A DNA stretch of 63,674 bases, the filler included, from Nitrospinae bacterium RIFCSPLOWO2_12_FULL_45_22 (lineage in GTDB: Bacteria > 2-12-FULL-45-22): NCBI GenBank assembly GCA_001803565.1. It is 5 parts of 5 records of this genome, joined end to end, with 100 filler letters (N's around TTAATTAATTAA, not from the genome) between each part and the next. Parts side by side here need not be neighbours in the genome. Positions count along the whole stretch, not along the records: positions 38,557 to 57,334 come from MHDQ01000122.1; 4 more parts are not named here. The stretch is one strand, 5' to 3'. The notes beneath the pieces were generated by a model. That model had not been told where the DNA came from, ran no database searches, and was given only the letters and a program-made list of their open reading frames with translations. Positions 38,557 through 56,780 of the stretch are shown one piece after another. The first letter of the stretch is position 1. Every line of letters begins with the position of its first letter. The translations under genes were made by a program, and so were the position numbers.

Positions 38557-38557
38557 C

Positions 38558-39205: not shown

Positions 39206-39376
39206 ACACAGATAGACACAGATGTAAAAGTATTCGTTTCAATGCAAAATGCAAAATTAGCAATTAGCATTTCAAAATCATTTCCCCCTATTGTTAATTG
39301 CTAATTTTTCATTGCTAATTTTGCAATGAAATAAAATGCTGTATTAATCAGTGTTCATCCGTGTTCATCCGTGGCA
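39196..39376. repeat. Palindromic intergenic repeat (related copy near 31270-31335)
   Basis: CCACGTATGAACACAGAT ... ATCAGTGTTCATCCGTGTTCATCCGTGG; inner GCAAAATTAGCAAT / ATTGCTAATTTTGC. Confidence 0.6.
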
Positions 39377-39394
39377 AATATTGGTTATATACAA

Positions 39395-40075
39395 ATGGAT
39401 TTTAGTCCCCTAATACAAAAGATATCTATTATAGCCCTACCAATAATAGTGGGTGTAATATTTCACGAAATAGCCCATGGATGGGTAGCTTACAAATTTG
39501 GCGACCCTACGGCCAAAGAACAGGGCCGCCTATCCATCAACCCTTTAGTACATATTGACCTGTTCGGTACCATTATCATGCCCCTGATCCTTATCTTCTC
39601 TCAAACTGGCATGATATTTGGCTACGCAAAACCTGTCCCGGTAAATTTCAGCAACCTGCGTGAGCCTAAAAAGAATATGGTATGGGTAGCCGCTGCGGGC
39701 CCAGTAACTAATATCCTCCTGGCCTTTTTGAGTGGTATAATCTTTCGCCTCATAGTGCTTATGAACCCTTATTATTTTTCCTGGAGTCCAGTATTATTCG
39801 ACCCCTTACTGTTAATGTTGAGATATAGTGTCCGCCTTAATTTGGTATTGGCTGTTATAAACCTGATCCCTATCCCACCAGTGGATGGGGGGAGGATCTT
39901 GACCGGACTACTGCCCTCTAGACAGGCCCTGGCGTATAGTAAGATCGAACCGTTTGGCCTATTAATCCTGGTGATGTTGATATTTTTTGATCCATTGGGG
40001 GTCTTTAGTGGGCTCGTATGGCCTATAATTAGCCTCCTAGATGCACTATTTTTGGGTTATAGATTTTCTGCCTGA
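39395..40075 (+). CDS. Site-2 protease (M50) family
   Basis: HEIAH, AAAGP, NLIPIPPVDG. Confidence 0.92.
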   Translation: MDFSPLIQKISIIALPIIVGVIFHEIAHGWVAYKFGDPTAKEQGRLSINPLVHIDLFGTIIMPLILIFSQTGMIFGYAKPVPVNFSNLREPKKNMVWVAAAGPVTNILLAFLSGIIFRLIVLMNPYYFSWSPVLFDPLLLMLRYSVRLNLVLAVINLIPIPPVDGGRILTGLLPSRQALAYSKIEPFGLLILVMLIFFDPLGVFSGLVWPIISLLDALFLGYRFSA

Positions 40076-42903
40076 TGGAGGATTTAATGGAGATCGAAGG
40101 TATTAAGGATTTTAAAGAAACTTTAAACCTCCCTAAGACTGACTTTCCTATGCGGGCTAATCTGCCTCAGAAAGAGCCGGAGATATTAGCAAAATGGGAA
40201 AAAGAGAGTATCTATTATCAACTCAGACAAATACTGGCCCAATGCCCTAAATATATCCTGCATGATGGGCCACCCTATGCCAATGGCCACATACATATGG
40301 GCCATGCCCTGAACAAGATACTGAAGGATATCATTGTCAAGGTGAAGGCTATGGAGGGGTATAATGCAGTCTATGTCCCGGGATGGGATTGCCACGGCCT
40401 GCCTATTGAACAACAGATAGGATTGCAATTAGAAGAAAAGAAAAGAGATATCCCGAAGAACGAGATCAGGCGCCTCTGCCGAGAATTTGCTGCGAAATAT
40501 ATAGATATTCAACGCGAGGAATTCAAACGCCTTGGTATTCTGGCCGATTGGGAGAGGCCTTATCTGACTATGAACTACAAATATCAGGCTGATATTATCC
40601 GTCAGTTAGGGATATTTATGGCCAAAGGGAATTTATATAAAGGACTGAAACCGGTCCATTGGTGCCCCTCCTGCCAGACCGCCTTAGCAGAAGCTGAGGT
40701 AGAATACGAGAGTCATAAGTCTCCCTCTATCTATGTCAGGTTCCCTTTGAAAGATGAATTGGGAGATAAATTCCCGGCCTTGAAGGGAAAACCAGTATCA
40801 GTGGTTATCTGGACTACTACCCCCTGGACCCTCCCGGCTAACCTGGCTATCGCTCTACATCCTGATTACGAATATGTAGCAGTAGAGTGGCAAGGAGAGG
40901 TCATGATAATAGCCAAAGAATTATTGGCCCCGGTAATGAATATTTTTGCTGCCCGGGATTATCAGATACTGGCTTCCTTCAAAGGATCTGTCCTGGAAGG
41001 ATTAAAGTGTCAACATCCCCTCTTTCCCCGGGAATCTTTACTTATAACGGGTGAGCACGTAACACTTGATCAAGGGACTGGCTGTGTCCATACGGCCCCA
41101 GGCCATGGGTTGGAAGATTACGAAATCGGCATTAGATATGGTCTCGAGGTATATGCCCCGGTGGATGAGCGGGGTTATTTTGTCGAATCATTACCGCAAT
41201 TTGGAGGTATGAAGGTCTTTGAAGCTAATGCTGCTATTAACCGGACCCTGCAGCAAAACGGTTATCTGGTACTAGAAGAAACCTTAATCCATTCTTATCC
41301 CCATTGCTGGCGCTGTAAAAACCCCATTATTTTCCGGGCAACACCTCAGTGGTTTATCTCTATGGAAAATAATGGATTACGTCAGGCGGCTCTAGAAGAG
41401 ATCGAAAAGGTACAATGGATACCCGCCTGGGGCCAGGCCCGCATCTATAGTATGGTAGAAAATCGGCCAGATTGGTGCATATCCCGGCAGAGGGCCTGGG
41501 GAGTCCCTATAACGGTAGTATACTGCCTGGCCTGTCAGCATGCCCTGGCATCAAAAGAATTAGCAGACTATGTAGCAGACCTGGTAGAAAAACATGGGGC
41601 AGATATCTGGTTTGAGAAGTCTACGGAAGAGCTATTGCCGCCTGGTACCAGTTGCCCCAGGTGTGGTGGCAAGGACTTTACCAAAGAGGATGATATCCTT
41701 GATGTCTGGTTTGATTCCGGGGCAAGCCATGCGGCGGTATTAACCCAGAGAGATGATCTGGTCTGGCCGGCAGATATGTACCTCGAAGGGAGCGACCAGC
41801 ATCGCGGTTGGTTCCAGAGCTCGCTGCTGATAGCGGTTGGGACCAGGGGTGCGGCCCCTTACCGGACAGTCCTTACCCATGGCTATGTGGTAGATGGTGA
41901 AGGGAAAAAGATGTCAAAATCGTTAGGCAATGTTATTGCCCCCCAGGATATTATAGAAAAATATGGCGCCGAGATCCTTAGACTATGGGTCTCTTCGGAA
42001 AATTATCGGGAAGATATCCGCATCTCGCCCCAGATACTGCAGCGGTTGGTGGAGGCCTATCGCCGCATAAGGAACACCTGCCGCTTCATCTTGGGCAACC
42101 TATACGACTTTGATCCACAGCTCCATCATATTCCCGATCAGCGACTCCCAGAACTGGATAGATTAATCCTGCATCGGTTGCAGAAGCTAATAGAAAAGGT
42201 GCGTAGATCTTATCAGGAGCATGAATACCACGTATTTTATCATGCCTTCCATAATTTCTGTACCGTGGACCTTAGTGCCTTTTATCTGGATACTATTAAG
42301 GATAGATTATATACCTTCAGGGCTGGCTCAGAAGAGCGGCGTGCCGCCCAGAATACCCTCTGGGAGATTATCCTGGCCCTGGTTAGTCTTATGGCCCCGG
42401 TACTTAGCTTCACAGCCGAAGAAGTATGGCAATACTTAGTCGGTAGGAGCCAACGAGAAACCAGCGTCCACCTTACCAGGCTCCCTCAGATAAATCCCGA
42501 GCTTGTTTATGAGGAACTGGCGAGCCGTTGGGAAAAAATCTTAGAGGTCCGGAGTGAAGTAACCAGGGCATTAGAGGTGGTTCGCAAAGAGAAAAAAATC
42601 GGTAACTCTTTAGAAGCCCGAGTTGATCTTTTTCTAACTACAGACTTATACCAGCTTATGGAAGATTATGCCTCAGAGCTGGCTACCATTTTTATTGTCT
42701 CAGATGCCCATATCCATCCAACCCCAGCCCCACCAGCTAATCCCAATCTCTTCACCAGCCAGGATATCCTGGGATTGTCTATCCTGGTCTCCCCAGCCCC
42801 GGGCCAGAAATGCGAACGCTGCTGGATATATAGTGAAACTGTAGGATTGAATAAAACATATCCCACTATTTGCCATCGCTGCGTGGGTTGCCTGGAAATT
42901 TAG
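40075..42903 (+). CDS. ileS: Isoleucine--tRNA ligase
   Basis: PPYANGHIHMGH, GWDCHGLP, KMSKS, C-terminal Zn finger. Confidence 0.97.
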   Translation: MEDLMEIEGIKDFKETLNLPKTDFPMRANLPQKEPEILAKWEKESIYYQLRQILAQCPKYILHDGPPYANGHIHMGHALNKILKDIIVKVKAMEGYNAVYVPGWDCHGLPIEQQIGLQLEEKKRDIPKNEIRRLCREFAAKYIDIQREEFKRLGILADWERPYLTMNYKYQADIIRQLGIFMAKGNLYKGLKPVHWCPSCQTALAEAEVEYESHKSPSIYVRFPLKDELGDKFPALKGKPVSVVIWTTTPWTLPANLAIALHPDYEYVAVEWQGEVMIIAKELLAPVMNIFAARDYQILASFKGSVLEGLKCQHPLFPRESLLITGEHVTLDQGTGCVHTAPGHGLEDYEIGIRYGLEVYAPVDERGYFVESLPQFGGMKVFEANAAINRTLQQNGYLVLEETLIHSYPHCWRCKNPIIFRATPQWFISMENNGLRQAALEEIEKVQWIPAWGQARIYSMVENRPDWCISRQRAWGVPITVVYCLACQHALASKELADYVADLVEKHGADIWFEKSTEELLPPGTSCPRCGGKDFTKEDDILDVWFDSGASHAAVLTQRDDLVWPADMYLEGSDQHRGWFQSSLLIAVGTRGAAPYRTVLTHGYVVDGEGKKMSKSLGNVIAPQDIIEKYGAEILRLWVSSENYREDIRISPQILQRLVEAYRRIRNTCRFILGNLYDFDPQLHHIPDQRLPELDRLILHRLQKLIEKVRRSYQEHEYHVFYHAFHNFCTVDLSAFYLDTIKDRLYTFRAGSEERRAAQNTLWEIILALVSLMAPVLSFTAEEVWQYLVGRSQRETSVHLTRLPQINPELVYEELASRWEKILEVRSEVTRALEVVRKEKKIGNSLEARVDLFLTTDLYQLMEDYASELATIFIVSDAHIHPTPAPPANPNLFTSQDILGLSILVSPAPGQKCERCWIYSETVGLNKTYPTICHRCVGCLEI

Positions 42904-42906
42904 ACG

Positions 42907-43383
42907 GTGAACCGGATAATTTTTCTAATCATTTCCTTAGCCATGATTCTATTATTGGATCAAGCCAGCAAGCTCTATATAGCAAAGAATATCCCCCTCT
43001 ATTACTCGATTGAAGTGGTGCCCAATCTCTTTAATATCACTCACATAAGGAATACCGGCGTAGCCTTTGGTCTGTTTGCGGGCGAGAAGACGATGCTAAC
43101 TACCCTTTTCTTTTTGACAATATCCGGGATAGCAATAGGGGTTATTAGCTATTTTTATTATATATCATCTTACAAAAACATTCTCACTCGGGTAGCCTTA
43201 GCCTTAGTACTGGGCGGTGCTATAGGAAATCTGATTGACCGGATACGGTTCCAGGAAGTAATTGATTTTATTGATCTTCACTGGTACCATTACCACTGGC
43301 CCGCCTTTAATATCGCTGATTCTTGCATTACTATTGGCCTTGGTCTCTTTATCCTGGAAACCCTGATAACAAAGAGGACTTAG
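42907..43383 (+). CDS. lspA: Lipoprotein signal peptidase
   Basis: NTGVAFG, GNLIDR, VIDFI, FNIAD. Confidence 0.96.
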   Translation: MNRIIFLIISLAMILLLDQASKLYIAKNIPLYYSIEVVPNLFNITHIRNTGVAFGLFAGEKTMLTTLFFLTISGIAIGVISYFYYISSYKNILTRVALALVLGGAIGNLIDRIRFQEVIDFIDLHWYHYHWPAFNIADSCITIGLGLFILETLITKRT

Positions 43384-43510
43384 AAATTCTAAATACTAAA
43401 TTCGAAATCCTAAACAAATTCCAAGGAGCAAAAGCCAAAATTCAAAACAGCTTTGGTCACTTGAACATTTGAATTTTGATATTGTTTAGAATTTAGGGTT
43501 TCGAATTTTG
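43384..43510. repeat. AT-rich palindromic intergenic repeat
   Basis: AAATTCGAAATCCTAAACAA ... TTGTTTAGAATTTAGGGTTTCGAATTT. Confidence 0.6.
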
Positions 43511-43524
43511 GCTTTGTTAATAAT

Positions 43525-44304
43525 ATGCACCCAATCTTATTTAAATTAGGCCCAATAACTATCTATACCTATGGGTTGTTTATTGCCCTGGCCTTTTTGG
43601 CTAGTATATATTTAGCGGCTCGTTCGGCAAAGAGAGAAGGGATTGACTCCCAGAAGATTATAGATCTATCCTTTTATCTTATGCTGGCTGCTATTATCGG
43701 CTCTCGCCTACTCTATGTCTTGCTAAATTTCAAATATTATTTATCTGCCCCTGGGGCTATATGGCAGATATGGGAAGGGGGTCTGGTCTTTTATGGTGGG
43801 TTGATAGCTGCGGCTGCTGTGAGTTTTATTTATATCAGAAAAAAAGGCCTTAATCTGTGGCAGATCACAGACATTTTTGCCCCCTCCCTTGCCCTGGGTC
43901 AGGCTATAGGACGCTGGGGGTGTTTTTTTGCTGGCTGCTGTTATGGCAAGCCCACTGATCTGCCATGGGCAATAACCTTCCATGATCCCGCCAGCCTTGC
44001 CCCTCTCGGCATACCTTTGCATCCCACCCAACTCTACTCTTCTCTAAAGGATTTAATTATTTTTGCCATCCTTATTCTACTGCAGAAACGGAAGAAGTTT
44101 CATGGGCAGTTATTCTGGGCTTATGTCTTATTTTATGCGGTACTCAGGTTCATAGTAGAATTTTTCCGGGGCGACCCCCGCGGTTTTCTCCCAGGTGAAT
44201 TACTATCTACTGCTCAGGTTATAGGAATAGCATTATTTCTCCTGGCAATAGTAATGCTCCGGAGGCTAAGATTCAAAGAACGGACCAATAATTCAATAGT
44301 ATAG
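43525..44304 (+). CDS. lgt: Prolipoprotein diacylglyceryl transferase
   Basis: GGLVFYGG, GQAIGRWG, HPTQLY, RFIVEFFR. Confidence 0.96.
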   Translation: MHPILFKLGPITIYTYGLFIALAFLASIYLAARSAKREGIDSQKIIDLSFYLMLAAIIGSRLLYVLLNFKYYLSAPGAIWQIWEGGLVFYGGLIAAAAVSFIYIRKKGLNLWQITDIFAPSLALGQAIGRWGCFFAGCCYGKPTDLPWAITFHDPASLAPLGIPLHPTQLYSSLKDLIIFAILILLQKRKKFHGQLFWAYVLFYAVLRFIVEFFRGDPRGFLPGELLSTAQVIGIALFLLAIVMLRRLRFKERTNNSIV

Positions 44305-44423
44305 GAATTTTCATTTTAATAATGCGGTTTTGGGGTAGTCGCAGGCTTTAGCCTGCGCTAATTTAAAGTAACCGTAACCGTTCACCGCAGAGCATGCCGA
44401 GAACCTTGTAGTTTTATTTTTGA

Positions 44424-45389
44424 GGATTCACAATTCCATACACGGCCATAGCCATAGAAAGAGAAAGCCATCCCGTAGTTATTCACACCCACAAGGCCAA
44501 TGAGATTGCCCGCTATCTTATAGAAAAAGGATCGGTACCGGGTCTTGAAGATGCAAAAGTACTCCAACAAGAGGTTACCAGAGGAATAAGTCGGTTTGAC
44601 TTTCTCCTGGAAAAGGACATGAGGGGAATTATTCTTGAAGTTAAATCATGTACCCTCTTTAGCAGGAGGGTAGCCATGTTTCCCGATGCCGTAACGGTCA
44701 GGGGAAGAAGGCATATAGACGAACTCTCAAGACTTTCTGGGAGCGGGATCGCTGGCGCAATTTTATTTCTAATACAGTGGCCGTTTTCAGAGTTCTTTAT
44801 GCCGGAGCATCATACAGACCTGGAATTTAGCAACACCCTTTGTAGAGCAAAGGAGAAAATAAAAATCTTTCCACTCTCCCTCTCTTGGAACAGAGACTTT
44901 TCTATAAACTTGTCCCAGGTAAGGATTCTGGATATACCCTGGAGTATCATTGAAAAAGAAGCTAAAGATAGGGGGAGTTACCTGCTTCTTCTCAGACTAC
45001 CAGAGGAAACCACAGCCGATGTAGGTTCACTGGGAAAGGTACATTTCAGGAGCGGTTACTATATCTATATAGGCTCAGCCAAAAAAAATCTCTCCAAGCG
45101 CATAGAGAGACACAAAAGGTTGAGAAAGAAACTTTTCTGGCACATTGACCATTTAAGAGAAATTGCTGATTTTCATGTCGCCCTGCCCATACGCACACAA
45201 GATGCCCTTGAGTGTGAAATTGCCGCAGCCATAAAGAAAGTTGCAGAGTGGGAAATAACCAGGTTTGGATCATCAGATTGTTCCTGTGATTCCCATCTTT
45301 TTGGAACTTTAAATGATCCACTTGCCTCGCCCCACTTTCACTCGATACTTCAATTCTACAGAATGGAAAGGCTCTTAAAGGATCTATAA
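44424..45389 (+). pseudogene. sfsA: 5'-truncated SfsA nuclease fused to a DUF123/GIY-YIG-like domain
   Basis: Frame open from about 44424 (…HTHKANEIA…SRFDFLL…EVKSCTL…FPDAVTVRGRRH) with no start and no SfsA N-terminus; C-terminal YIYIGSA, FWHIDHL, FGSSDCSCDSHL. Confidence 0.75.
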
Positions 45390-45399
45390 ATCTTCTATT

Positions 45400-45438
45400 C
45401 GGTGGCGGAACGCCATCCGCACGAGTAATTTGTTATGC
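45400..45438 (-). mobile_element. Partial attC-like site downstream of hicB
   Basis: GCATAAC-AAATT-ACTCGTGCGG-ATGGCG TTC CGCCA-CCG, 9 nt after the stop; distal arm missing. Confidence 0.5.
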
Positions 45439-45447
45439 AAGAAATAA

Positions 45448-45661
45448 TTATACGTATATCAGTTTGTTGCCTTTTGGTTCGGGGATTACATCGCCGAATT
45501 CCTTAGCTGTATCCATCCACAATTGAATCGCTTCCTTAGCATTTTTCAATGCCTCTTCCGGAGTACCGCCATGTGCCATACAGCCGGGAAGTTCAGGCAC
45601 TTCTGCTATAAATACCTCATCTTTCACTGCTCCAGTAAATTATAATCTCATATTTATACAT
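45448..45661 (-). pseudogene. hicB: HicB-family antitoxin with a 1-nt frameshift
   Basis: MYKYEIIIYWSSE / DEVFIAEVPELPGCMAHGGTPEEALKNAKEAIQLWMDTAKEFGDVIPEPKG; span 214 nt (extra A in GAAAGAT). Confidence 0.85.
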
Positions 45662-45881
45662 TAATTTCCCCTCCAAGTTTATATCTTAGAATAACATTTC
45701 TTACTTGTTTCACTTGATATGGTTTTGTCTTATCCTTGTCTTTCTGTAAATTAATCTTTTCAACTATACCCTCTTTTCGAAAAATATGATGGCTGCTTCT
45801 TATCCGTTCTTCAAAGCCTAAGTTTTTCAGCAAGTTGCATAAGTCCTCGAAATGAATATTTGCATCGGTGGGGATCATCAT
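45654..45881 (-). pseudogene. hicA: HicA-family toxin, N-terminus apparently lost
   Basis: DANIHFEDLCNLLKNLGF..RIRSSHHIF..INLQ..KPYQVKQVR; overlaps the hicB start. Confidence 0.7.
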
Positions 45882-45985
45882 TATTAATCCCTACCTGAAA
45901 CCAGAGCATAATGATTATGTGGCGATTTCTAATGATGAGGGAGAGGCAACTTTCAAGCAACTCAAAAAGTATGGCAGAAAAATAG
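45868..45985 (+). pseudogene. Fragment resembling an S24 (LexA/phage repressor) peptidase domain
   Basis: GIIIINPYLKPEHNDYVAISNDEGEATFKQLKKYG. Confidence 0.5.
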
Positions 45986-46327
45986 AATCAAAATTAAGCC
46001 AATACTCGGCAAAAGACGGATTCGCCCAACAAAGGATTTCCATGGTTGTAGAAATTTACGTTGATACATTACTTTTCCTCCTTTCATCCTGGCAAGTGCC
46101 AATTCCACCTCATTCTTTTTGGGGTTGCCGAAGTTGCAAAGACAATCCCGACTAATCGTAGCTAAGTCGGCAACCCCGTATTCAGGAAAAGCGTCAGACA
46201 TCCCTCCCGTAGACGAATTATCTTTGACCAAATAGGGAATCTTCTATCACAAAAAGAGTCTCATCGCCACATCTGGTAAGTTGAATAGCTTCAGGCTAAA
46301 CCCGGTACATTACGATATGGGTCAGCC

Positions 46328-47038
46328 TTAACGATTCTCCTCGGGACCTTCCGGGCACATGCCTTTCTCCATTCGGAAGAAATGTGCTGGTTCCTTTACT
46401 TCAGGCCGTACCGGTTTACGGAGGGTTTCCCGGACAAAGGCCACCCGGTCCACAAGACGCAACTCCGGATACACCCGGTCGATCGCCTCAATCAGCACCA
46501 AATCCTCAACGGCGATGGCTATTCCTGGATCGAACCAGTGCGCTGGCTCTTGCCATTCCCACCCCTGTTTCAGCGCTTTACCTCCGATTCCGACCACTGA
46601 CTTAGGTCGAATGTCGGTCGCGAGTCTCTCCCTGACGAAATGGGCCGGCTCCATCCAGTCCGTCCGCAGCTTCAAATGAAGTGCATCGAACCAGATTAAG
46701 TACAGATTGTAGTTTCCCGCCGCGACCTTCCATGGGTCCGGCATTGGTCCAAATACTTTGGATAGTTCCTTATCAAAAAGCGTGTCTTTGAGGTGTTCCG
46801 CCCCCATGCAAATACACTTATGTACACCCTTGTCTCCCACCTCTAACACGACTGGCACGGTGGTAGTTACCACAAACCCTATCTGCCGTGATACCTGGTC
46901 GAATGCGTTGTCTATCTTTACCTGATATTTCTCACGGATGCGGGTGTATATGGTAATCAGGTCATCGTGCAGTTTTACGACCGCCGGATGCGCTGGTTCC
47001 ACCCAATCGCGTATGCGAGCAAATGTTTTTCCGTCCAT
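46328..47038 (-). CDS. Hypothetical protein with four EPAH motifs
   Basis: AAGGAGG RBS; DWVEPAH, DWMEPAH, EWQEPAH, EVKEPAH and GPMPDPW. Confidence 0.8.
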   Translation of the reverse strand: MDGKTFARIRDWVEPAHPAVVKLHDDLITIYTRIREKYQVKIDNAFDQVSRQIGFVVTTTVPVVLEVGDKGVHKCICMGAEHLKDTLFDKELSKVFGPMPDPWKVAAGNYNLYLIWFDALHLKLRTDWMEPAHFVRERLATDIRPKSVVGIGGKALKQGWEWQEPAHWFDPGIAIAVEDLVLIEAIDRVYPELRLVDRVAFVRETLRKPVRPEVKEPAHFFRMEKGMCPEGPEENR

Positions 47039-47149
47039 AGTGCACCTCCTTATATAATTATGTGGTGTAAAAGACTCAACCTTCTTTTTACTTGTTACTT
47101 ATGAATTAGACCTTCAGCAATTTTTGGTCGTGGGAAAAAAGCTTTTTAC

Positions 47150-47303
47150 ACACCCCTTCTTCCCCTCTTTTTAGATGGGAACCGCTATAATCTCCCTTCT
47201 ATCTATCGTTCGACTGAGCGTTCGTCTGAGACCTCGGCGTGAGCTCGGTCGAACGCTCACGCCGAAGACTCACGACGAAGTCAAGAGGGGCAGAGGGGGA
47301 GTT
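47150..47303. repeat. Composite palindromic (REP/MITE-like) element
   Basis: CCCCTTCTTCCCCTCTT ... AAGAGGGGCAGAGGGGG arms around nested CGACTGAGCG/CGCTCACG hairpins. Confidence 0.55.
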
Positions 47304-47365
47304 ATCTACCCTTATACTTCACCGAAACTTAACAAAGAAACTTTCCTGCGCAGGGAAATAGTGTT

Positions 47366-49144
47366 TCACCTCCTTTCATCTTTTTGTTCAGCCAATCGGT
47401 TTTTAAACACGTGATACGGGATTGGCGCGGGCGCCACTCCCAGCAAGTCTGTGTCTTCCATCCATTCGGAATCTGGCGTCATAAACTCCAAATTCTCCAG
47501 ACTCTCTAGGCCGTAATAAGGCTTAGGTTTGCAGCTCAGGAAGGGCAGCGCTCCGGTATTTGACACGAACCTCGACACCCTGGCATCCTGGCCACGATGA
47601 TCGTACGTATTGCTCAACCTGCGCAGAATACGCTCGCCCTGGGCATGTAAGCCTCTGCTCCTTTCGTCAACGCGTTCTCTCATCTCGCGCGCAAAACCAC
47701 GGACCATGACATGATCGTTCGGGTTTGCTGTTGCCACAAAGTCGTAGATCTGGCAGAGGCACTCGTAGGTATCCAGGTTGGTCTGCTTGATGAAGTTGCG
47801 CACTGATGCGCGCAATGTCTGTGTCAGTACTTCCGGATGGAACCGACGCAGCAGTTGGAAGTAGAAATCCACCTGCATGTTGAAATAGTGCAGTCCGAAA
47901 TCGCTGAAATTACGATCAAAGAAGGCGTAGTTAGCGATTTGGTGAAATGCCTCAGAGCGCGGGTCTTTAAGCCGGTAATCGAATCCAAAGTAGTCACCAA
48001 GCAGCCGGCCTTCAGCCCTCAGTTTCGCCTCTAACCCAGTACCTGGGTAAGCCTCTGCACGGCAGAAGTTGAATGGATTCTCGATGTGCCGTTCGATAAA
48101 GCGTAAATTGACCAGGATATCATTCAAAACTGTGTCGGGTTCGAACATGAGTAAATTATAGGCGAGGTGCACATCGAAGTCATTGAGAATGCGCAGTGCG
48201 TTCAGTATCTGGTCGAGGGTGCATTTGCGGTTCAGGTTACGCAGCCCATTCTCATGTGCGTTTTCCACCCCCAGGAATACACGAAACAATCCCAGGCCAT
48301 CCAGCACCCGGATCGAGTCATAGGTAATGCTATCAGGCCGCGCCTTGACTGCTATGGCGATCCCTTCGATTCCCTCTTGCTTCAATCCGTCTCTCAGTTC
48401 CTCGAAGCGGCGAAGCGCCTTCTCTGGTCTTGGGAGAAAGAAGTTGTCATCCTGAAAATTAAAGATCCGGACACCGTAGCGAAAGTAGAGTTCCTTCATC
48501 TCTGCCACGATGTTCTCCACGCTTCTCACCCGAAACTTCTTCCCACCTCCCCTTTCATACCAGGCATTAATGCTGCAAAAAGCACAGTTGCGCCAGCATC
48601 CCCGGCTGGTCAGGATGCTCGCAATGGGCTTATCGAAATATTCGTGGAATGTTAATCGTTTGGGAAACGGTAATGCGTCTAGATTATCCTGATTGCCAGT
48701 TGAAATGTTGGTTGTTACTGATCCATCAGATTTTCGATAGCAAAGGCCGTGTACCCTGGATAGATCTTCAAGATGATCAGCCAACATACTAACGATATGT
48801 TCGCCTTCACCCAGGCAGACCGAATCAAATGCGGGAAAATCCCGGAGCAGATGTTCTGAGTTGAATGAGGCGAAGGGACCACCTGCCGTCAAATGACCAT
48901 GAAAACCACCTTCCCGGAGCGCCTGCGCCAGGTAACAGAACTCTCGTGCGCGACCTGTGAACATCATAGACAAACCGATGATCTGTGGGGAGAAGGCGAT
49001 CACCTGCTTTAGTGCCTGTGAGATGTCATACTCCGAGTTGAATGGGACGATTTCCACCTGGTGTTCTTTGTATTCTAGTGCAGAGGCTATGTAACGCAGG
49101 CCGAGGTTTTCTTCCAACTCTGCACCTACCAATGCAACTTTCAT
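47366..49144 (-). CDS. B12-binding-domain radical SAM protein
   Basis: Start at ATG 49144 (AGGAGGTGG RBS); ENLGLRYIAS, GGPFAS, GEGE, TSRGCWRNCAFC, FQDDNF. Confidence 0.9.
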   Translation of the reverse strand: MKVALVGAELEENLGLRYIASALEYKEHQVEIVPFNSEYDISQALKQVIAFSPQIIGLSMMFTGRAREFCYLAQALREGGFHGHLTAGGPFASFNSEHLLRDFPAFDSVCLGEGEHIVSMLADHLEDLSRVHGLCYRKSDGSVTTNISTGNQDNLDALPFPKRLTFHEYFDKPIASILTSRGCWRNCAFCSINAWYERGGGKKFRVRSVENIVAEMKELYFRYGVRIFNFQDDNFFLPRPEKALRRFEELRDGLKQEGIEGIAIAVKARPDSITYDSIRVLDGLGLFRVFLGVENAHENGLRNLNRKCTLDQILNALRILNDFDVHLAYNLLMFEPDTVLNDILVNLRFIERHIENPFNFCRAEAYPGTGLEAKLRAEGRLLGDYFGFDYRLKDPRSEAFHQIANYAFFDRNFSDFGLHYFNMQVDFYFQLLRRFHPEVLTQTLRASVRNFIKQTNLDTYECLCQIYDFVATANPNDHVMVRGFAREMRERVDERSRGLHAQGERILRRLSNTYDHRGQDARVSRFVSNTGALPFLSCKPKPYYGLESLENLEFMTPDSEWMEDTDLLGVAPAPIPYHVFKNRLAEQKDERR

Positions 49145-49203
49145 AAACCACCTCCTTCTTAAATCTAATGAGTCGTTATACGATAACTTTGCCTTAGAAA
49201 ATC

Positions 49204-49265
49204 TTTGAATGTTCCGCTTGAGGGACGCGACATAAAGCACCGCTCCCCTCAAGCAGTTGTTAGGC
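49204..49265 (-). mobile_element. attC-like site (62 bp, R' box degenerate)
   Basis: GCCTAAC-AACTG-CTTGAGGG...CCCTCAAG-CGGAAC-ATTCAAA: RYYYAAC, 5-nt and 6-nt spacers, paired L boxes. Confidence 0.55.
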
Positions 49266-49334
49266 AAAACCATCTCTACTCGTGTCTGACCCCATTTTCC
49301 ACGAGCCGAGATGCCAAAACCGCAGCTAGACTTC

Positions 49335-51680
49335 CTATGAACTAGGTGGCTCCTCCAGACAGAACCCGATATCAACTGCGACGCAAAACGCAAACCCATG
49401 GCTGTCATAGTTGGTGCGGTCACACACCACCATGTGAATAACGTACCCGCAGGGGTCCATATCAGTCGTGTCCAGTCTCCAATAGCCCGATTCGCCTGTG
49501 GTAGGCACCGTCGGGAAGGAACGGCTAGTCGCGAAGGTATAAGTAATTCCTCCGTCACCCGAGAGCATGACCGTGGCCCCGTGGGCTGGCCCGTCTGGGA
49601 TGACGTCGAGGCTTACGCTCCCGAAGTGCTGGTTGACCAGGTCGCTCGTGCCAGGGTCATGGACCTCGTACGTACCGGTCAGGATGGTACCCACGGGAAA
49701 CTTACCGCAGTCTATAGCCGGAATGGGGTTGCCGTTGAACGTAGCACCGGTGATGGTCAAGGTAACCGGGGCGTATGGCTGAAGTGCAATATTTGCCGCA
49801 GGGACTGACGATGGGGCGGTGTTGTCAACGCGCACCCTGATTACCTGCGCTCCTGGATAGAGTGTAGGAGGACTGACATTCGGGTCTTTCGCCTCCATTC
49901 TGATCTCCCATTCGCCTTCCATCGAGGCGTTCGTCAGCCACCTGGCAAGTTTATCCACCACCAGGAAGCGGGTGGAGGGAGCCGTGTGGTCTTCCAGGTA
50001 TTCGTACCAGCCCTCGCCCAGGCCATCGCCATCGTCAGTGGCCGTGAGGTTGAGGTTAAATATTGTATCACCCGGCGATTCCTCTTGCTGCACTGCGCCT
50101 ATGAATTTTGTGACGTCAACTTCTATCGTGTTGGTGAGCGGATGCCAGGTGTCAATGCCGTCATCTTTTCGGACCAGGATTCTGTATTTCAGTGGTAAAG
50201 CCCCGCCGCCATAGGAATCTGGCAGGGTGCCTGCAATGCGTCCGGTGATGGTAATGCCGCCTCCAAATGGACTCAAGGTTACTGAGAAGGCGCCGATCTC
50301 CGCATCGCCGGTAGCCAGCCCGGTGGCTGGATCAATGTCATCAACTGCGATATCGCCAACGGTCTCGATAACCGGGCTACGTGCCACCGCTTTGCTAGGC
50401 CGCAATTGGATGAGGCATTCCTCGCGATTTCCCCAGACCGGAACATAGTTCGGGTTCGCGGGGGGCGGTGGGGTCTCCCAGGATAGAATGGCGCGTAGAC
50501 GGACGATCTTCGGCCCAGCTTCACAGGGCACGAGATACTGGGAGAAGTCTTTCTTGAGAAAGACGGCATACTGGACATCCTCCGGCGGGATGGTCTGGAG
50601 GTCGTGGACCTGCGCGGTGGCTGTGCCCATATAGGTGAAGCCGCTGCCGTCGCCGAAGTCGATCCAGAAGGCCACGTACTCTGTTGACCCCTTGGCACAT
50701 AGCCCGCCGGAATAGCCGGAAGACCTTTTGATCGTGAGCACTGCTTCTAGCAGGTCGCTTTGTGGGCGAAGACCGACGCATCTTAGCTCTTCATAGCTGG
50801 TGTCTCCGTCCGTTACGATCTGGAGTTTGCCGAAAAGCTCCGCGATTTCGCTCACGCTAAGTCCAAGGGACGCTAAAGGACTATCACCATTCGCTGTGAC
50901 TAAGGCTGAGGTTACCGTCTTGGCCGTCAGGAGCGTCTGCGCCTCTGTGAAACCGAAGCGGTGAACCGGCACGCCCTTGTTCGCATAGAGCACCTTCTTC
51001 TGGGAAAGGCTTAGAGTCTCCAGCGTAAAAGGTTTAATTGTGATATTTGGGTCCAGGCCAGCAATGACGGGGCCGATTGGGTCCGGGATCTTGACCTGAA
51101 GGTCAACAAGCCCTTTTACCAGGTCACCCACGAAGAAAGAGTACTTGGGTTGAATCTGGACCTGGACGGTCAAGACATTCCCATAGACCGGCGGCCAGTT
51201 GGGTTGATTTGCCGGCGGCGGCGTGTCCCAGGAAAGGATGGCTCGCACCTTGACGATGTTCTCGTTGGTGCAACGCTTCTTGAACGGGGTAAAGTCCTTC
51301 CTCACGGCGTAGCAGAGGGGCTTGCCGCCAGGGATGTTATGGACTCGCACACTGCTCAATCCCACATCGTGCCAGACACCGTTGTCATGTATGTCGACGT
51401 AGAACCGAACATACTCAAACGATCCTTGGCTGCAGATGTCGCCTCCGTATCCAAACTCCTGCTTAAGGTGGAGCACAGCTTCCAGGCGGTTGGATGGAGG
51501 GTTTAGCCCCACACACATCAACTCTTCATAGGTCGTAACGCCTTGCTGAAGCTTGACTGGCTTGTATGGACTCAACTCCAGGTTGCCGAAGTAGTTGGGG
51601 TTTTGTAGGATCAACGAACGGAACTGTGCCCGCTCTCGTTCTAATGTTGTTGTGTTTTCGGAATTTTCACAGGTTTTCAT
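49335..51680 (-). CDS. Hypothetical 781-aa protein with an internally duplicated Cys-containing domain of about 130 aa
   Basis: YEELxCVGL..LEAVL...GY.G..C..GS.EYV.F..D...RAILSW.TPPP...P...PV.GN occurs twice; AAGGAGG RBS. Confidence 0.85.
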   Translation of the reverse strand: MKTCENSENTTTLERERAQFRSLILQNPNYFGNLELSPYKPVKLQQGVTTYEELMCVGLNPPSNRLEAVLHLKQEFGYGGDICSQGSFEYVRFYVDIHDNGVWHDVGLSSVRVHNIPGGKPLCYAVRKDFTPFKKRCTNENIVKVRAILSWDTPPPANQPNWPPVYGNVLTVQVQIQPKYSFFVGDLVKGLVDLQVKIPDPIGPVIAGLDPNITIKPFTLETLSLSQKKVLYANKGVPVHRFGFTEAQTLLTAKTVTSALVTANGDSPLASLGLSVSEIAELFGKLQIVTDGDTSYEELRCVGLRPQSDLLEAVLTIKRSSGYSGGLCAKGSTEYVAFWIDFGDGSGFTYMGTATAQVHDLQTIPPEDVQYAVFLKKDFSQYLVPCEAGPKIVRLRAILSWETPPPPANPNYVPVWGNREECLIQLRPSKAVARSPVIETVGDIAVDDIDPATGLATGDAEIGAFSVTLSPFGGGITITGRIAGTLPDSYGGGALPLKYRILVRKDDGIDTWHPLTNTIEVDVTKFIGAVQQEESPGDTIFNLNLTATDDGDGLGEGWYEYLEDHTAPSTRFLVVDKLARWLTNASMEGEWEIRMEAKDPNVSPPTLYPGAQVIRVRVDNTAPSSVPAANIALQPYAPVTLTITGATFNGNPIPAIDCGKFPVGTILTGTYEVHDPGTSDLVNQHFGSVSLDVIPDGPAHGATVMLSGDGGITYTFATSRSFPTVPTTGESGYWRLDTTDMDPCGYVIHMVVCDRTNYDSHGFAFCVAVDIGFCLEEPPSS

Positions 51681-51714
51681 TACTATCTCCTCCTTGTTGA
51701 GATGATAAGGATGA

Positions 51715-52255
51715 GTCGAGTAGATCGGTTTCTCCCGATGCTACAGGTTGAGGTTTGTTTTCTCCGTTTTCTGCCTGGTTTCCCGGCAGTACCACAATAT
51801 TTCAACCATACATCAGTTGGCCCCAACCCTTTCCCTCCCCCGGTATTACCCGGCCTCATTGGTAATATGGGTTGATCCGACTACCTATGCTCCGTCCTCT
51901 GGCCTCGTCTCCTCGGCTTCACGTACCCACATTGCTGCAGGAAAGCATAGGTCCTCCCAGGTTCCTGTGAAATCCCTTGGACAGCATGCCATGGACTATG
52001 ACCCCGGTGGAGTATCCGCCATCTCACCTATATCGATGGCTTCGTTGCTGTCTTCCGTGTTCCTTAACCACGTCGACTCGCTCCACATCATAAGCATTTT
52101 CGGAACTGAATACCTTCACCCTTACGGCCTACTGCCTCCCTGTTTACGCTCCACCCATACGATTACCCGTATAGATGCAAAACTCGGGACGGTCGGCTAA
52201 CTTTATCAGGTTGGCTTCTCAACCAACTGAATCTCACAAGCTTGGCCTGGCGCAC
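51715..52255 (-). ncRNA. ORF-less group II intron derivative (domains I-III and VI; IV-V deleted)
   Basis: 5' GTGCG, 3' CTACTCGAC; DIII GCCGGGTAATACCGGGGGAGGGAAAGGG; EBS1-like loop TAAGGAA complementary to the flanking TTCCTTA. Confidence 0.8.
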
Positions 52256-52371
52256 TAAGGAATTGCTTTTTTGTTTAGGAAAGATTAACATAGCGATAAG
52301 GAAAATTGCAACCTTTTTTTCTAACGGATGTTCACCCCCTCTTATTTTACTAAGCTATTGAAAATATAAGA

Positions 52372-53793
52372 AGGTTTTAGGACATAGCTTTGCCGGAAAG
52401 TTGGCTATATGGCAGATCATCGCACGAGTAATTGACCAGGGTTCCAGGCTTTCCGCTGTTCGGCTGGCACAAACACACGCAGCATGCGACCTATTAGAGA
52501 TAACACGTGGATTTGATGAGAACGATCCCTACGACAATCTAAAATGGTTAGCCGATAATCAGGAAAAAATCGAAGATAGTCTATTCCGATCAAGGCGTGG
52601 TAAAGATAAGCCACAAATATTCCTTTACGACGTAACAAGCAGTTATTTAGAGGGTGAAAGAAATTATTTTGCTGAGTACGGCTATCCACGCGACCAAAAA
52701 AAGGGGAAAAAACAAATAGTCATCGGATTATTATGTGATGAGTATGGTGCTCCAGTCTCTGCAGAGGTCTTTGCTGGTAATACACAGGATCCACAAACGT
52801 TTTGCTCGCAGGTTAAAAAAGTGGCAGATCGCTTTGGTTGTGAGAATGTAACATTTGTAGGTGACCGAGGGATGATTAAAAGCGCTCAGATAGATGCTCT
52901 ACCAGAAGGTTTTCACTACATTACGGCAATAACCAAGCCACAGATACATACTTTAATTACTCAAGGTCTCATTCAGATGGGGTTATTTGATGAGAAGATT
53001 TGTGAAATTGAGGATGACGGGGTGCGTTACATCCTGCGACGCAATCCATGTCGTGAAGATGAGATCGCCAAGACCCGCTTGTCAAAGCGTCAGTGTATTG
53101 AGAAATTTATTAGAGAGAAGAATCTCTACCTGGATGAACATCCGAGGGCTAAGGTATCCGTAGCAATAAAAGAGGTGGAAGAGAAGATAAAACGTCTTAA
53201 AATTGACATCTGGTTGAAAGTTGAGGAGCAGAATAGGGTATTAAGTTTGAAGCAAGATGATACCGCACTAAAAGAAGCATCCCTTCTGGATGGTTGCTAC
53301 GTGATTAAGACTGATCTTCCTAAAGAGGCAGCAGATAAACAGATTATCCATGATCGTTATAAGGATTTAGCTTTAGTGGAACAAGCTTTTCGTAACTGCA
53401 AAACTGTGATTCTGGAAGTTCGGCCAGTGTTTGTGCGGACAGAGAAGAGTACTCGTGGTCATGTGTTAGTAGTGATGCTTGGATATATGATTGTACGGAG
53501 GCTCCATCAGGCCTGGGCCGGGTTTGATTTGACTGTTGAATAAGGTCTTAAAAAATTATCAACTCTTTGTTCCATAGAAATGAAAGTCAAAAATAATAGT
53601 TCTTATTTGAAGATTCCTCGACCACGGAAGGAATCCAGGGAATTATTGAATGCATTAAATATTAGGATGCCTATAGTCTTGCCTCATCGGGAGGTGAATG
53701 TAGACACTAAGAAAAAATTGCCAAAGCAACGCAAACTCCTTTAAAAATAATGCCTTATGACCAAATCATACCTTATCTTTTGGGGTGAACAGG
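52372..53793 (+). mobile_element. IS1634-family transposase pseudogene
   Basis: FLYDVTSSYLEG, YGYPRDQKKGKKQIVIGL, VGDRGM, VEQAFR; N-terminus missing; premature TAA at 53541 with the frame continuing to 53744. Confidence 0.85.
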
Positions 53794-54140
53794 ATGGCCA
53801 TCTCTGGGGGCGAATGTACCTTAAACAGATTATGGCTGCTGCAATATGTGAGAGAGCTAAAGAGGCTAAACCCGGACCCTAATGCAAGGATTCATATAGA
53901 TACTAATGGCTCTATCCTGACAAAGGATTATATAGACGAGCTGGTCGAAGCCGGCATGACCGATATAGACCCAGACCTTAAGGGGTATTATCCGGAGACA
54001 TTTATGCGGATAACCGCCATAGAAGATAAAGGACTTGTGGAGAGGTACTTGAATACCGCATGGGATGCAGTTAGGTATCTGATTGATAAATATAAGGATA
54101 GGGTTTTCATTGGTATAGGGATACCGTACAATAAGGAACT
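53794..54140 (+). pseudogene. Internal fragment of a radical SAM (glycyl-radical activating-enzyme-like) gene
   Basis: ISGGECTL, HIDTNGS, DLKG; no CxxxCxxC; begins at the IS end. Confidence 0.65.
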
Positions 54141-54459
54141 TTTATCGGCTCAACAGATAAATCCCAATTTTTTTTTTGCACTATCAAAAACATGGTCTAC
54201 TTTATATATCAAACAAAACCAATGGGAAATAAAGTTTTGGCCTATTGACAATGCGCAGGTAATATTTGCTAACCCTTTGTTTTTATTAAGATTTTATGAA
54301 TCTTAAAGTTTCTCAGCTACATAGCCAAAAAGCCTTAAAAATAAATCAGTTAGATGGTTTTTATCTGCACAGAGTCAATAGGTAATAAAGTTTTTACTTG
54401 TTCACCTTTGTCTTTATACCTGATCATTTTGCACATCCTAAAATCCTTTGGGATCTGAT

Positions 54460-55890
54460 CTAAGCCTTCTCATTAATCCTGGCCCGCAGATTCTGAGCCC
54501 GAATGCGGATTGAACGAGCGGCAATGGCTGAAAACGTCTTCCACGGTTCTTCGGATGGACGAACCAACCCTAGGATTCGGCGGTGAAAGGGATTATCTTT
54601 CTCGCCAACATGTTTGGCCTCCTCAACCCCGACCGAATACCCTTCTGGGTTGGCTGCCTCGTTATACATTCGAAGCGAGGTTACATTTAGATCCTCATCG
54701 ACCAGGACTATCGCACCGCCATAGAGTGGTTGGGCCTCCACGGTCTCCACCACCCAGCCACCGGTGTTATAGACATTTACCCATTGCGGATATCCTTTAA
54801 AATTCATATCTTCCTGAAAGGGTTTGTGGGTATGACCGAAAATAAAGGTAACATCAGGCGGCATATTTCCTTTCAGTTCATTCAGAATCTGCTGCCGCAA
54901 GGGCCCGTTCATATAAGCCCAAAGGCCTTTTTCGGCATCCTGGCTTAGTAGACGAGCTGTGTGGGTTCTCTCCCTCCCGGCAATCTTACCCGCCACCGCA
55001 TTAAAAAGCCACTTTAGAAGCTTGGCCTCCATTGCGTCACCCCAGCCCGGAATATCATATCTCTTTGCCATATTAGTAGCCAATGTGGAGAGGAGATTTT
55101 CAACCTGTTCCCAATCCTGCATTTTCTCATATATTAATTCGATATCCTGGCCGGCATCTCCGGAACGTCCCATAGTCGACCAGAAAAAATCAATCCAGGC
55201 AAAATTTTCAGCCTCTATGTCCCAAACCTGTCTTGGCATTTCATGGTCAGGGAAAAGCAGAGTCCTCAGGGTGCTTATTAACTGATAGAGCGATTCGGTG
55301 AAATGACCATGATGAAAAATAAGGCACTTCTGGTTATCCTTTCCCAAAAGGCCAAAGTTAGGATAGGCTATGGGGATAATGGTATCCTTTAGATGAGGAA
55401 ACCTTTGAACCAGTTTTGTCAAAAAGTAGGCCCGCACTGGATCGGGATCGTTCTCGACAAACATATTTGTGGTATGCCAGGGAATATTCAAAGGCTTGCC
55501 CGGCTCAACCTTCGCCATGTAACCCACATACTGGGTCTCGCGGGCACTCTCCCAAAAATGATGGTCGTGATTACCCGGTATGTAAACAATCCTGTCAAAA
55601 AGCCCTTTTCCATGCGGCATAATCAATTCTATAAATCGTTCGAAGACCATGGCCGCCTGATTGTCCGTAGTCAAGGCCAGTTCGAGGATATCTCCATTTA
55701 GTATCAATATTGGCTTTTTCTTGTCCTCGTTCTTCGAGATAAGATATTCCAAACACTCTACCAGTTGCTTCATTACCGGGCTCGGCTGCATTGGGTCGGG
55801 ATCGGTACTGGCTGTTTTCAGATTGGTTAATAGACTATCTTCTTCACCCAGATGCATATCTGATAAGCAGACATAACGTATATCAGGCAT
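54460..55890 (-). CDS. Calcineurin-like metallophosphoesterase
   Basis: SDMHLG, NGDILE, PGNHDH, HHGH, FGHTH, NTGGW. Confidence 0.88.
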   Translation of the reverse strand: MPDIRYVCLSDMHLGEEDSLLTNLKTASTDPDPMQPSPVMKQLVECLEYLISKNEDKKKPILILNGDILELALTTDNQAAMVFERFIELIMPHGKGLFDRIVYIPGNHDHHFWESARETQYVGYMAKVEPGKPLNIPWHTTNMFVENDPDPVRAYFLTKLVQRFPHLKDTIIPIAYPNFGLLGKDNQKCLIFHHGHFTESLYQLISTLRTLLFPDHEMPRQVWDIEAENFAWIDFFWSTMGRSGDAGQDIELIYEKMQDWEQVENLLSTLATNMAKRYDIPGWGDAMEAKLLKWLFNAVAGKIAGRERTHTARLLSQDAEKGLWAYMNGPLRQQILNELKGNMPPDVTFIFGHTHKPFQEDMNFKGYPQWVNVYNTGGWVVETVEAQPLYGGAIVLVDEDLNVTSLRMYNEAANPEGYSVGVEEAKHVGEKDNPFHRRILGLVRPSEEPWKTFSAIAARSIRIRAQNLRARINEKA

Positions 55891-55947
55891 ATTGCCACCT
55901 CCTCCTGAACAAAGCCATTCCTTTAATTAGTTGTCACCTTTAAACTT

Positions 55948-56106
55948 TCAGTCTTCATCCTCCAATATCATGACACCCCGTAATCGAACTGTGAGAGGTT
56001 CAGCATCTGCAAAGATAGTACTTCCGTTAAAGAGATGATCTAACTTTTGCAAAGAAACCGTGGGTGCAATACGGGTAGGAGAACCCCACCATGTTAGCAT
56101 TGCCAT
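55948..56106 (-). CDS. Small 52-aa ORF or gene remnant
   Basis: AAAGGAGG RBS; MAMLTWWGSPTRIAPTVSLQKLDHLFNGSTIFADAEPLTVRLRGVMILEDED. Confidence 0.5.
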   Translation of the reverse strand: MAMLTWWGSPTRIAPTVSLQKLDHLFNGSTIFADAEPLTVRLRGVMILEDED

Positions 56107-56241
56107 AGTTTGTCCTCCTTTATTAAACGAAGTTAAAAGGCCAAAAGTTGCGACATGATCGTTCGTGGTACAATTATCAAAGATTTAAGAAGAAACTAAT
56201 CTCCTCCATACGCCAAGGGCGTAGAAGGTGGAATTGAACAT

Positions 56242-56685
56242 TCATCCCAAAAGATTCAAGAAAGTATGCCGTCCTATTACCACAGTAACCTTTCCCGTCC
56301 GGATGCCTTCTTCTGCCCATTTAGGAAGCTTCCCCCCTCGCTGCTTCCGGGCGGCTTCGACGTTTAGGTAGTGGTCAGCATTTTGCGTTACGTCCCCCAG
56401 TTCTCCGGCCAAAGCCTTCTGGGCAATACTCATCGCCCCCTTCCACCCGTCTGGGTCATCCTCTTTGGCCGTGAACACCTTTGCATAATTGGGATCCTTT
56501 GGCGAAGTCCAAGAAAATTGATTGGGCTTCAAGATGACAGCACTGATACCCTCAGCCATTCCTTTCTTGACCCGGTTCAGGATAACATTGCATACTCCTT
56601 GCTGCCCCTCCTCTGGCTCTCCCCGTGCCTCTGCCCACAAGCAGACAGCCAATAGGTCTTCTTGTGAAAAGTCTTTTAGGTTCAT
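56242..56685 (-). CDS. Cell wall hydrolase (SleB/Hydrolase_2 family)
   Basis: WAEARGE, VILNRV, PNQFSW, IGRHTF. Confidence 0.9.
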   Translation of the reverse strand: MNLKDFSQEDLLAVCLWAEARGEPEEGQQGVCNVILNRVKKGMAEGISAVILKPNQFSWTSPKDPNYAKVFTAKEDDPDGWKGAMSIAQKALAGELGDVTQNADHYLNVEAARKQRGGKLPKWAEEGIRTGKVTVVIGRHTFLNLLG

Positions 56686-56780
56686 TTCTGCATCCCTTTC
56701 TTCGCATTTTGGGTTAAAAACTCTTGCCCCAGGGCATTCTGCGCACTTTCTTTGAATGTTTATAAATGAACATCTAGAAA

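Follow-up and report, generated by a model that had tools for sequence, protein, structure and literature searches.

What does a cobalamin-dependent radical S-adenosylmethionine (SAM) enzyme act upon when the only gene that keeps it company encodes a protein of no known family? The question is raised by a stretch of 63,674 nucleotides (nt) from Nitrospinae bacterium RIFCSPLOWO2_12_FULL_45_22 (assembly GCA_001803565.1), hereafter the window, in which a B12-binding radical SAM gene is followed on the same strand by a gene for a 236-residue partner protein that carries the tetrapeptide Glu-Pro-Ala-His (EPAH) four times. A preliminary description of this DNA had reported the two co-oriented genes, the four motifs and a GPMPDPW segment (residues 97-103 of the partner). 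All of these were recovered as open reading frames (ORFs), Pfam domains and motif positions, and the span 46328..49144 proved exact, extending from the partner ORF (46328-47038) to the enzyme start at 49144. To our knowledge, cobalamin-dependent radical SAM enzymes are among the largest and least characterised enzyme classes, and the substrate is unknown for most of them. The answer favoured here, to which we assign a probability of roughly 55%, is that the two genes encode a dedicated enzyme and its protein substrate, the enzyme modifying the EPAH sites of its neighbour.

An obligate gene pair

The first line of evidence is linkage. Two sets of loci were compiled, 37 seeded with the partner (one genome per species) and 80 seeded with the enzyme (metagenome contigs), giving 117 when pooled. 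Conserved adjacency had been predicted from the window, and it is borne out in both sets. The enzyme is adjacent to the partner in 35 of the 37 partner-seeded loci (35/36 testable), and the partner lies directly downstream of the enzyme in 73 of the 80 enzyme-seeded loci, with a gap of 2-331 nt (73/73 testable). The other seven enzyme-seeded loci have at most 132 nt of downstream DNA, and the 73 include the contig of the window itself. The two partner-seeded loci without adjacency are L037, in which only 191 nt lie upstream before the contig ends, and L032, a truncated orphan copy of the partner (residues 47-220) beside molybdopterin-enzyme fragments; at a further locus, L003, the gene order is reversed. 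Beyond these two genes nothing is constant: no third gene family is conserved, the next commonest neighbour occurring in 15 of the 117 pooled loci, and no protease, exporter, leader or leader-recognition domain is conserved near the pair in that set. Nor is a short precursor hidden between enzyme and partner, since the gaps are too short. The enzyme and its partner are an obligate two-gene unit.

Could this adjacency be mere hitch-hiking on a mobile island, with no functional coupling and with the motifs a structural quirk? The G+C content of the cassette (50.5-52.7%, vs. 45.2% for the assembly) and the nearby DDE transposase and group II intron fragment speak for such a history. Against it, however, stands the persistence of the pair at virtually every testable locus, in wholly different neighbourhoods and phyla, which brings this explanation close to refutation and leaves it with a negligible chance of being correct.

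The EPAH sites

The second line of evidence is the repeated site itself. Chance does not explain it, because the composition of the family predicts 0.0035 EPAH occurrences per 236 residues where four are observed. The 507 occurrences in 120 proteins define a consensus, [RP]-[DE]-[WV]-x-E-P-A-H-[FPWY], in which E, P and H are each present at about 100% and A at 95%. The suggestion that the motif is conserved while the spacers differ was upheld: alignments of 24 and 65 sequences show little or no variation at any of the four positions, and the linker between sites 2 and 3 is unalignable. Copy number is variable, as had also been anticipated. It ranges from 1 to 10 across the family, with up to 10 in the fetched loci; among the 120 proteins, two copies occur in 1, three in 7, four in 89, five in 13, six in 7 and seven in 3. 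Extra copies are inserted in tandem, within the linker or within the tail, both predicted to be flexible, and produce proteins of 400-533 residues. In a six-frame translation of the 3.67-Mb assembly, the partner is the only open frame of at least 60 residues with at least two EP[AVP]H or with any [DE][WV]xEP[AVP]H.

Variation within the site is informative as to which residue might be modified. One subclade carries EPPH in place of EPAH, and in four related loci only the third site is left (EPPHWFD), with an intact enzyme alongside. Position 3 thus tolerates A, V or P, with A and V mixed within single proteins, and is for this reason an unlikely target of modification. E, P and H, on the other hand, never vary, and are therefore the candidates for the modified atom. 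No enzyme column of at least 95% conservation changes in the five EPPH-type loci.

The partner protein

The partner appears to belong to a family of its own. There are at least 644 homologues with E<=0.001 (47-99% identity for the best 120), those with named hosts coming from Brocadia, Methanosarcinales and Hydrogenedentota, and identity across phyla is about 50%. Searches of Pfam, NCBIfam and PADLOC assign the partner to no family. A weak Pfam scan of 65 family members returned DUF1128 as the sole recurring match (8/65, best E 9.4e-5), with none on the window protein; members with such weak matches to DUF1128 (YfkK/UPF0435) include P0089, P0090 and P0104 of alignment A2. A profile search of 1.84 billion cluster representatives recovered 178 clusters at E<=0.001, and among 150 of these many of the lower-ranked ones are short (~50-130 residues) and are taken as fragments; links to other families may exist among these clusters. 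The ESM Atlas gave no usable match. The gene is single-copy in the window's own assembly, and a search of 40 further genomes (1 from the same order, 39 from the same domain) did not turn up the partner.

An AlphaFold2 model built from a 65-row alignment (predicted local distance difference test, pLDDT, 72.5; predicted template modelling score, pTM, 0.66) shows a confident core at residues 18-126 together with helices at 177-189 and 195-206, whereas the linker and the tail, which carry motifs 2-4, are flexible. This fold has no clear relative. Foldseek against the PDB yielded no match at E<=0.001, the best being a TonB C-terminal domain at E 0.22, and the best hit of a VIA wide search, to TolA/TonB C-terminal domains, reached Z 5.3 (root-mean-square deviation 3.5 Å over 91 aligned residues), which is too low to signify more than a common arrangement. 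The preliminary description had held that motifs buried as structural elements would tell against modification. In the model sites 2-4 are not buried: they occupy stretches of pLDDT below ~56 that are not part of the folded core. Site 1 caps the first helix. A di-iron ExxH four-helix protein was rejected as an identity for the partner, the sites being in flexible segments and variable in number.

Such repeats invite comparison with peptide precursors. The partner might be a true precursor from which housekeeping proteases excise the modified EPAH units, setting free a small peptide or cofactor, with additional copies raising the yield. Peptide-derived cofactors such as pyrroloquinoline quinone (PQQ) and mycofactocin provide the parallel. 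Multiple identical cores per protein in variable number, and a gene adjacency like that of radical SAM enzymes and peptides of ribosomal origin that are modified after translation (RiPPs), agree with this, as does the presence, immediately upstream of the enzyme in Brocadia-type loci, of a gene for a papain-like peptidase (Peptidase_C70/C39_2). That peptidase, however, is present in only 4 of the 117 loci and absent from the window, and no protease, exporter or leader-recognition domain is conserved. The protein architecture is also unfavourable: a structural helix has site 1 as its cap and a conserved helix follows immediately on site 3, so that excision would destroy the conserved fold. Release of the sites as peptides is accordingly an improbable outcome. 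A gene for an uncharacterised 212-236-residue protein accompanies the Brocadia-type peptidase upstream of the enzyme (L002:4638-5880; L039-L041, ~2361-3664) and is likewise absent from the window.

The radical SAM enzyme

The enzyme starts at 49144, as judged from its N-terminus, MKVALVGAELEE, which is common to all 25 aligned orthologues. It combines an N-terminal B12-binding domain with a radical SAM core, the layout termed "class 1" among cobalamin-dependent radical SAM enzymes in PMC13331322, and continues into a family-specific C-terminal region. Conservation is high throughout: mean column identity is 70% across the 25 orthologues, and orthologues from six phyla of Bacteria and Archaea are 60-91% identical to the window's enzyme, region 341-500 included. 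The three cysteines of the [4Fe-4S] cluster motif (C183, C187 and C190) are invariant. The only further invariant cysteine is C361, located in the C-terminal region, which may be a catalytic residue; C70 and C135, both N-terminal to the radical SAM core, are nearly invariant. With C361 as the sole invariant cysteine besides CX3CX2C, the enzyme has no SPASM/twitch auxiliary cluster. Folded alone, the C-terminal region models as a helical bundle, and a structure search of this model against the PDB gave no match at E<=0.001.

By architecture the enzyme is a member of the class-B superfamily and a predicted user of cobalamin and SAM, yet it is outside every named subfamily. Homologues are numerous (960 at E<=1e-20), and the best 120 of them bear generic or automatic names only ("hypothetical", "anaerobic Mg-protoporphyrin cyclase"). 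NCBIfam returns 27 matches, all far below cut-off, the 25 that are listed each falling several-fold short. HpnR, at 94.8 bits against a cut-off of 650, is the best, and HpnR, HpnJ and BchE are the closest similarities. The named class-B subfamilies whose cut-offs are not reached comprise these three as well as rSAM_ocin_1, BzaD, ApyD, the ladderane B12 radical SAM enzyme, the methyl-coenzyme M reductase (MCR) glutamine methyltransferase, PhpK and others. A ladderane or hopanoid lipid enzyme was rejected on these scores. So was an anti-phage defence system, PADLOC giving no match to the partner and only the generic PDC-M51A (E 1.2e-10) for the enzyme. The nearest solved structures by sequence are OxsB (PDB 5UL2, E 2.3e-14, residues 28-352), 9ccb (an unnamed radical SAM protein) and CysS (E 1.5e-5).

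The partner might, alternatively, be no substrate at all. It could instead serve as an adaptor, scaffold or chaperone, its E-x-x-H sites binding a metal or corrinoid or docking the enzyme multivalently, while the true substrate is a small molecule or a protein encoded elsewhere. Glutamate and histidine are typical metal ligands. The partner core is well folded and so well conserved across phyla that it resembles a subunit more than a precursor, single-site partners still accompany an intact enzyme, and many class-B enzymes act on small molecules, the distant similarities to HpnR, HpnJ and BchE pointing the same way. Yet no biosynthetic or transport gene is conserved nearby to supply or use a small molecule, and for a stoichiometric subunit it is difficult to see why near-identical sites should multiply in tandem, up to 10 of them, within disordered segments. 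Moreover, the partner has no conserved Cys or other cofactor motif in the 24- and 65-sequence alignments, and the genome encodes no other motif-bearing protein. An auxiliary role of this sort is unlikely, but it is the main rival of the substrate reading.

Proposed modification of the partner

That the partner is instead the dedicated substrate of the enzyme fits best with four observations taken together: the two-gene linkage is obligate and nothing else is conserved with it; a short invariant site is exposed, tandem-multiplied and absent from the rest of the genome; characterised members of the class to which the enzyme belongs mostly methylate unactivated carbons, several positions of a single peptide among them (PMC13331322); and the extra domain of the enzyme is very strongly conserved. 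From comparative genomics we infer that the EPAH motifs are the modification sites, and the residue, the chemistry and the role of the product proposed below are inferred as well. In the proposed mechanism, the class-B radical SAM enzyme would bind the folded core of the 236-residue partner and then modify one residue inside each exposed [DE]-[WV]-x-E-P-A-H-[FWYP] site. The modification would stay on the partner protein itself and would not be borne by a released peptide. The first-choice chemistry would be cobalamin-mediated C-methylation of an unactivated His, Pro or Glu carbon (+14 Da per site), and the second choice a radical crosslink between residues of one site, such as Glu and His (-2 Da). 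C-methylation is ranked first because it is what most characterised members of the class do; the chemistries that PMC13331322 lists for the class are methyl transfer, ring contraction, ring formation and thioether formation.

Complex prediction, the modelling check proposed in the preliminary description, gave this mechanism weak support. With alignments made for this analysis as input, three runs of enzyme and partner returned interaction prediction scores from aligned errors (ipSAE) of 0.30, 0.46 and 0.34 (median 0.34), against 0.00 for the best control; in these runs the partner pLDDT was at least 59 and contact agreement between runs at least 11%. Among solved complexes 116 of 157 attain the ipSAE mark, as do 2 of 215 mismatches; with values no higher than 0.60, only 18 of the 157 attain it, together with both mismatches. 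The prediction is thus weakly in favour of binding.

Several points weigh against the enzyme-substrate proposal. The complex score is in the weak band, with no interface reported. The Pfam scan finds no recognisable RiPP recognition element (RRE)-type peptide-recognition domain in the enzyme, and its C-terminal bundle is without a PDB match. No enzyme residue co-varies with A, V or P at motif position 3, and multi-site modification is not essential, given that the single-site (EPPHWFD) subclade retains an intact enzyme. The partner could be a subunit, being ~50% identical across phyla and more globular than the usual RiPP precursor. Finally, the +14 Da shift is only a prior, since class-B enzymes also carry out chemistry other than methylation (PMC13331322).

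What the modified partner might be for is more speculative. Our guess is a metal- or cofactor-binding protein of anaerobes. In a bolder version, the cassette would build a new redox or metal-binding group from Glu-Pro-Ala-His, such as a Glu-His crosslink or a C-methyl-histidine centre, on the scaffold of the partner, and this protein-derived cofactor would be shared horizontally among anaerobes (anammox bacteria, Methanoperedens, Bathyarchaeota, Acidobacteriota and Geobacter relatives). This version is improbable. Should a new protein-derived cofactor or metal site be confirmed, it would add to anaerobic metabolism a component that annotation has missed.

Distribution and horizontal transfer

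Hosts of the pair include Planctomycetota, Acidobacteriota, Thermodesulfobacteriota, Chloroflexota, Methanoperedens and Bathyarchaeota. A maximum-likelihood tree was calculated for 25 enzymes, namely that of the window and those of 24 of the 35 genome loci (L003, L011, L013, L016, L022, L023, L024, L026, L029, L030 and L036 were left out). The window pairs with Brocadia carolinensis (100/100). Bathyarchaeota has an acidobacterial row as its sister (100/100) and stands away from the Methanoperedens pair, such that the archaeal rows are not monophyletic, and Acidobacteriota and Thermodesulfobacteriota each fall into several separate supported clades. Together with the changing gene neighbourhoods, this tree pattern indicates that enzyme and partner move horizontally as one unit. 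The 20 sequencing runs in which the stretch occurs, whole or in part, are metagenomes from groundwater, soil and sediment, with no RNA run among them.

Genomic context in the window

The window consists of several contigs linked by N runs (9769-9868, 20667-20680, 31004-31103, 38457-38556 and 57335-57434), and gene order across these joints therefore carries no meaning. The cassette is contained within one piece, 38557-57334, where the ORF listing places three co-oriented minus-strand genes in the order 781-residue gene, enzyme and partner. Features of the enzyme-partner pair are collected in Table 1.

Table 1. Positions of the enzyme-partner cassette and its elements, counted along the window
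Feature	Position	Strand	Basis or remark
EPAH-repeat partner protein, 236 residues	46328..47038	-	ORF listing
EPAH site 4, EVKEPAH, E216-H219	46382..46393	-	C-terminal tail; tandem extra copies here in relatives
EPAH site 3, EWQEPAH, E164-H167 (EPAHWFDPG)	46538..46549	-	retained even where other sites of relatives decayed
EPAH site 2, DWMEPAH, E130-H133	46640..46651	-	start of flexible linker
EPAH site 1, DWVEPAH, E14-H17	46988..46999	-	caps long helix 18-53
Enzyme-partner spacer, 327 nt	47039..47365	-	without conserved ORF
Class-B (cobalamin-binding) radical SAM enzyme, 592 residues	47366..49144	-	Pfam PF02310 + PF04055
Family-specific C-terminal region, very conserved, residues 341-592	47369-48124	-	orthologue alignment
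C361 in NPFNFCRAEAY	48062..48064	-	only further invariant cysteine
Radical_SAM core PF04055, residues 178-335	48140-48613	-	69.6 bits, cut-off 29.5
CWRNCAFC = CX3CX2C (C183, C187, C190), [4Fe-4S] cluster motif	48575..48598	-	invariant in 25/25 orthologues
B12-binding domain PF02310, residues 11-119	48788-49114	-	58.7 bits, cut-off 32.1

At 327 nt the gap that separates enzyme and partner is unusually long, most other loci having 2-150 nt, and an AGGAGG stands 7 nt ahead of the partner ATG. A perfect 10-bp inverted repeat with a 10-nt loop was seen by eye at ~47235-47264 (-) within the spacer. An Rfam scan found no riboswitch, its sole match being the group II intron fragment outside the cassette, and a promoter and terminator scan of 45800-52400 found fewer sites than in shuffles.

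Upstream of the enzyme, the 781-residue gene (49335-51680, -) encodes a protein with no Pfam or NCBIfam family, in which two similar segments of ~130 residues can be made out by eye. The protein has its own orphan family of 1647 homologues at E<=0.001, the best 120 of which are 49-91% identical. Its identity to a protein of Brocadia sinica is 89%, and Dehalococcoidia, Thermoanaerobaculia and Acidobacteriota also have homologues. Because it is found beside the cassette, besides in the window, only at the Brocadia carolinensis locus, this gene is regarded as a separate module.

Mobile-element remnants border the block of higher G+C content. These are a 5′ fragment of a group II intron (51992-52219, -; RF02005, 108.8 bits, E 7.5e-31) with no domain 5/6 match, an adjoining DDE transposase ORF (PF01609; 52401-53543, +), and, beyond the transposase, a 173-residue ORF (53785-54306, +) that contains a radical SAM domain in part only. 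Just downstream of the cassette, where ORFs lie at 45654-45881 (-) and 45868-46155 (+), is an ORF with a HicA-type toxin-antitoxin domain (75 residues, 32.9% G+C). Further out, a 256-residue ORF (44619-45389, +) joins an SfsA nuclease-like domain (PF03749) to DUF123 (PF01986) in an uncommon-looking fusion.

Comparison with known systems

The preliminary description did not recognise the pair as a described family, and this judgement stands: beside the lack of a database family for the partner, a full-text literature search, which ran over main texts, retrieved no paper describing the EPAH motif or the pairing of a B12 radical SAM enzyme with this partner. It had also called the system RiPP-like. 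The adjacency of maturase and substrate gene, as expected of a RiPP cluster, is found here (35/37 and 73/80 loci), while a short leader-core precursor is not, the partner having a folded core, and neither is a conserved peptidase or exporter. The enzyme-partner system is therefore RiPP-like in a loose sense.

The closest parallels within the enzyme class are the peptide C-methyltransferases of the PoyC, rSAM_ocin_1 (TIGR03975) and CysS types, which likewise place an N-terminal B12-binding domain ahead of the radical SAM core. RiPP class-B methyltransferases are, according to PMC13331322, also encoded beside their ribosomal substrate and act at several sites of one substrate. There is sequence similarity to TIGR03975, at 87.7 bits far below the family cut-off of 281.85, alongside the match to CysS noted above. 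In contrast to the PoyC-type and CysS systems, with their leader-core peptides, the candidate substrate here is a conserved, folded 236-residue protein, genes for a protease, an exporter or other tailoring are lacking, the cassette has hosts in both Archaea and Bacteria, and the enzyme has a family-specific helical C-terminal region. OxsB shares the same class 1 cobalamin radical SAM architecture and performs a nucleotide ring contraction, but the similarity to it is uninformative as to substrate because only the shared cofactor domains are covered.

The proposal that a full-length protein is modified has a precedent in the C-methyltransferases of MCR, Mmp10 (arginine) and TIGR04014 (glutamine), both of which modify a side-chain carbon of a complete protein. 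Again the enzymes themselves differ. The window's enzyme scores 57.9 bits against TIGR04014 (cut-off 360), and its cobalamin domain is N-terminal, whereas that of Mmp10 is C-terminal ("class 2" in PMC13331322). The target, too, is different, being a dedicated, adjacent and repeat-bearing protein. For the repeats, the likeness is to TvgA/TvgB, the source of poly-cyclopropylglycine, in which a radical SAM enzyme modifies every TVGG repeat in the product of the adjacent gene; according to PMC9062424, TvgB belongs to a radical SAM subfamily that binds up to three [4Fe-4S] clusters. TvgA is a short peptide whose motif and hosts differ from those of the EPAH system. The enzyme described here has a B12 domain and one extra invariant Cys instead.

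Set beside these systems, the two genes represent a pair of families not described before, although the kind of system is known, and the gene pair itself is real and strongly supported. The pair predicts an undescribed post-translational modification on a protein of anaerobes that matter in the environment, among them anammox bacteria, methane-oxidising archaea and peat and soil Acidobacteriota. Here, moreover, the genome names the probable substrate, a short, invariant site that can be synthesised and of which one protein may have up to ten copies, which makes the new enzyme family directly assayable.

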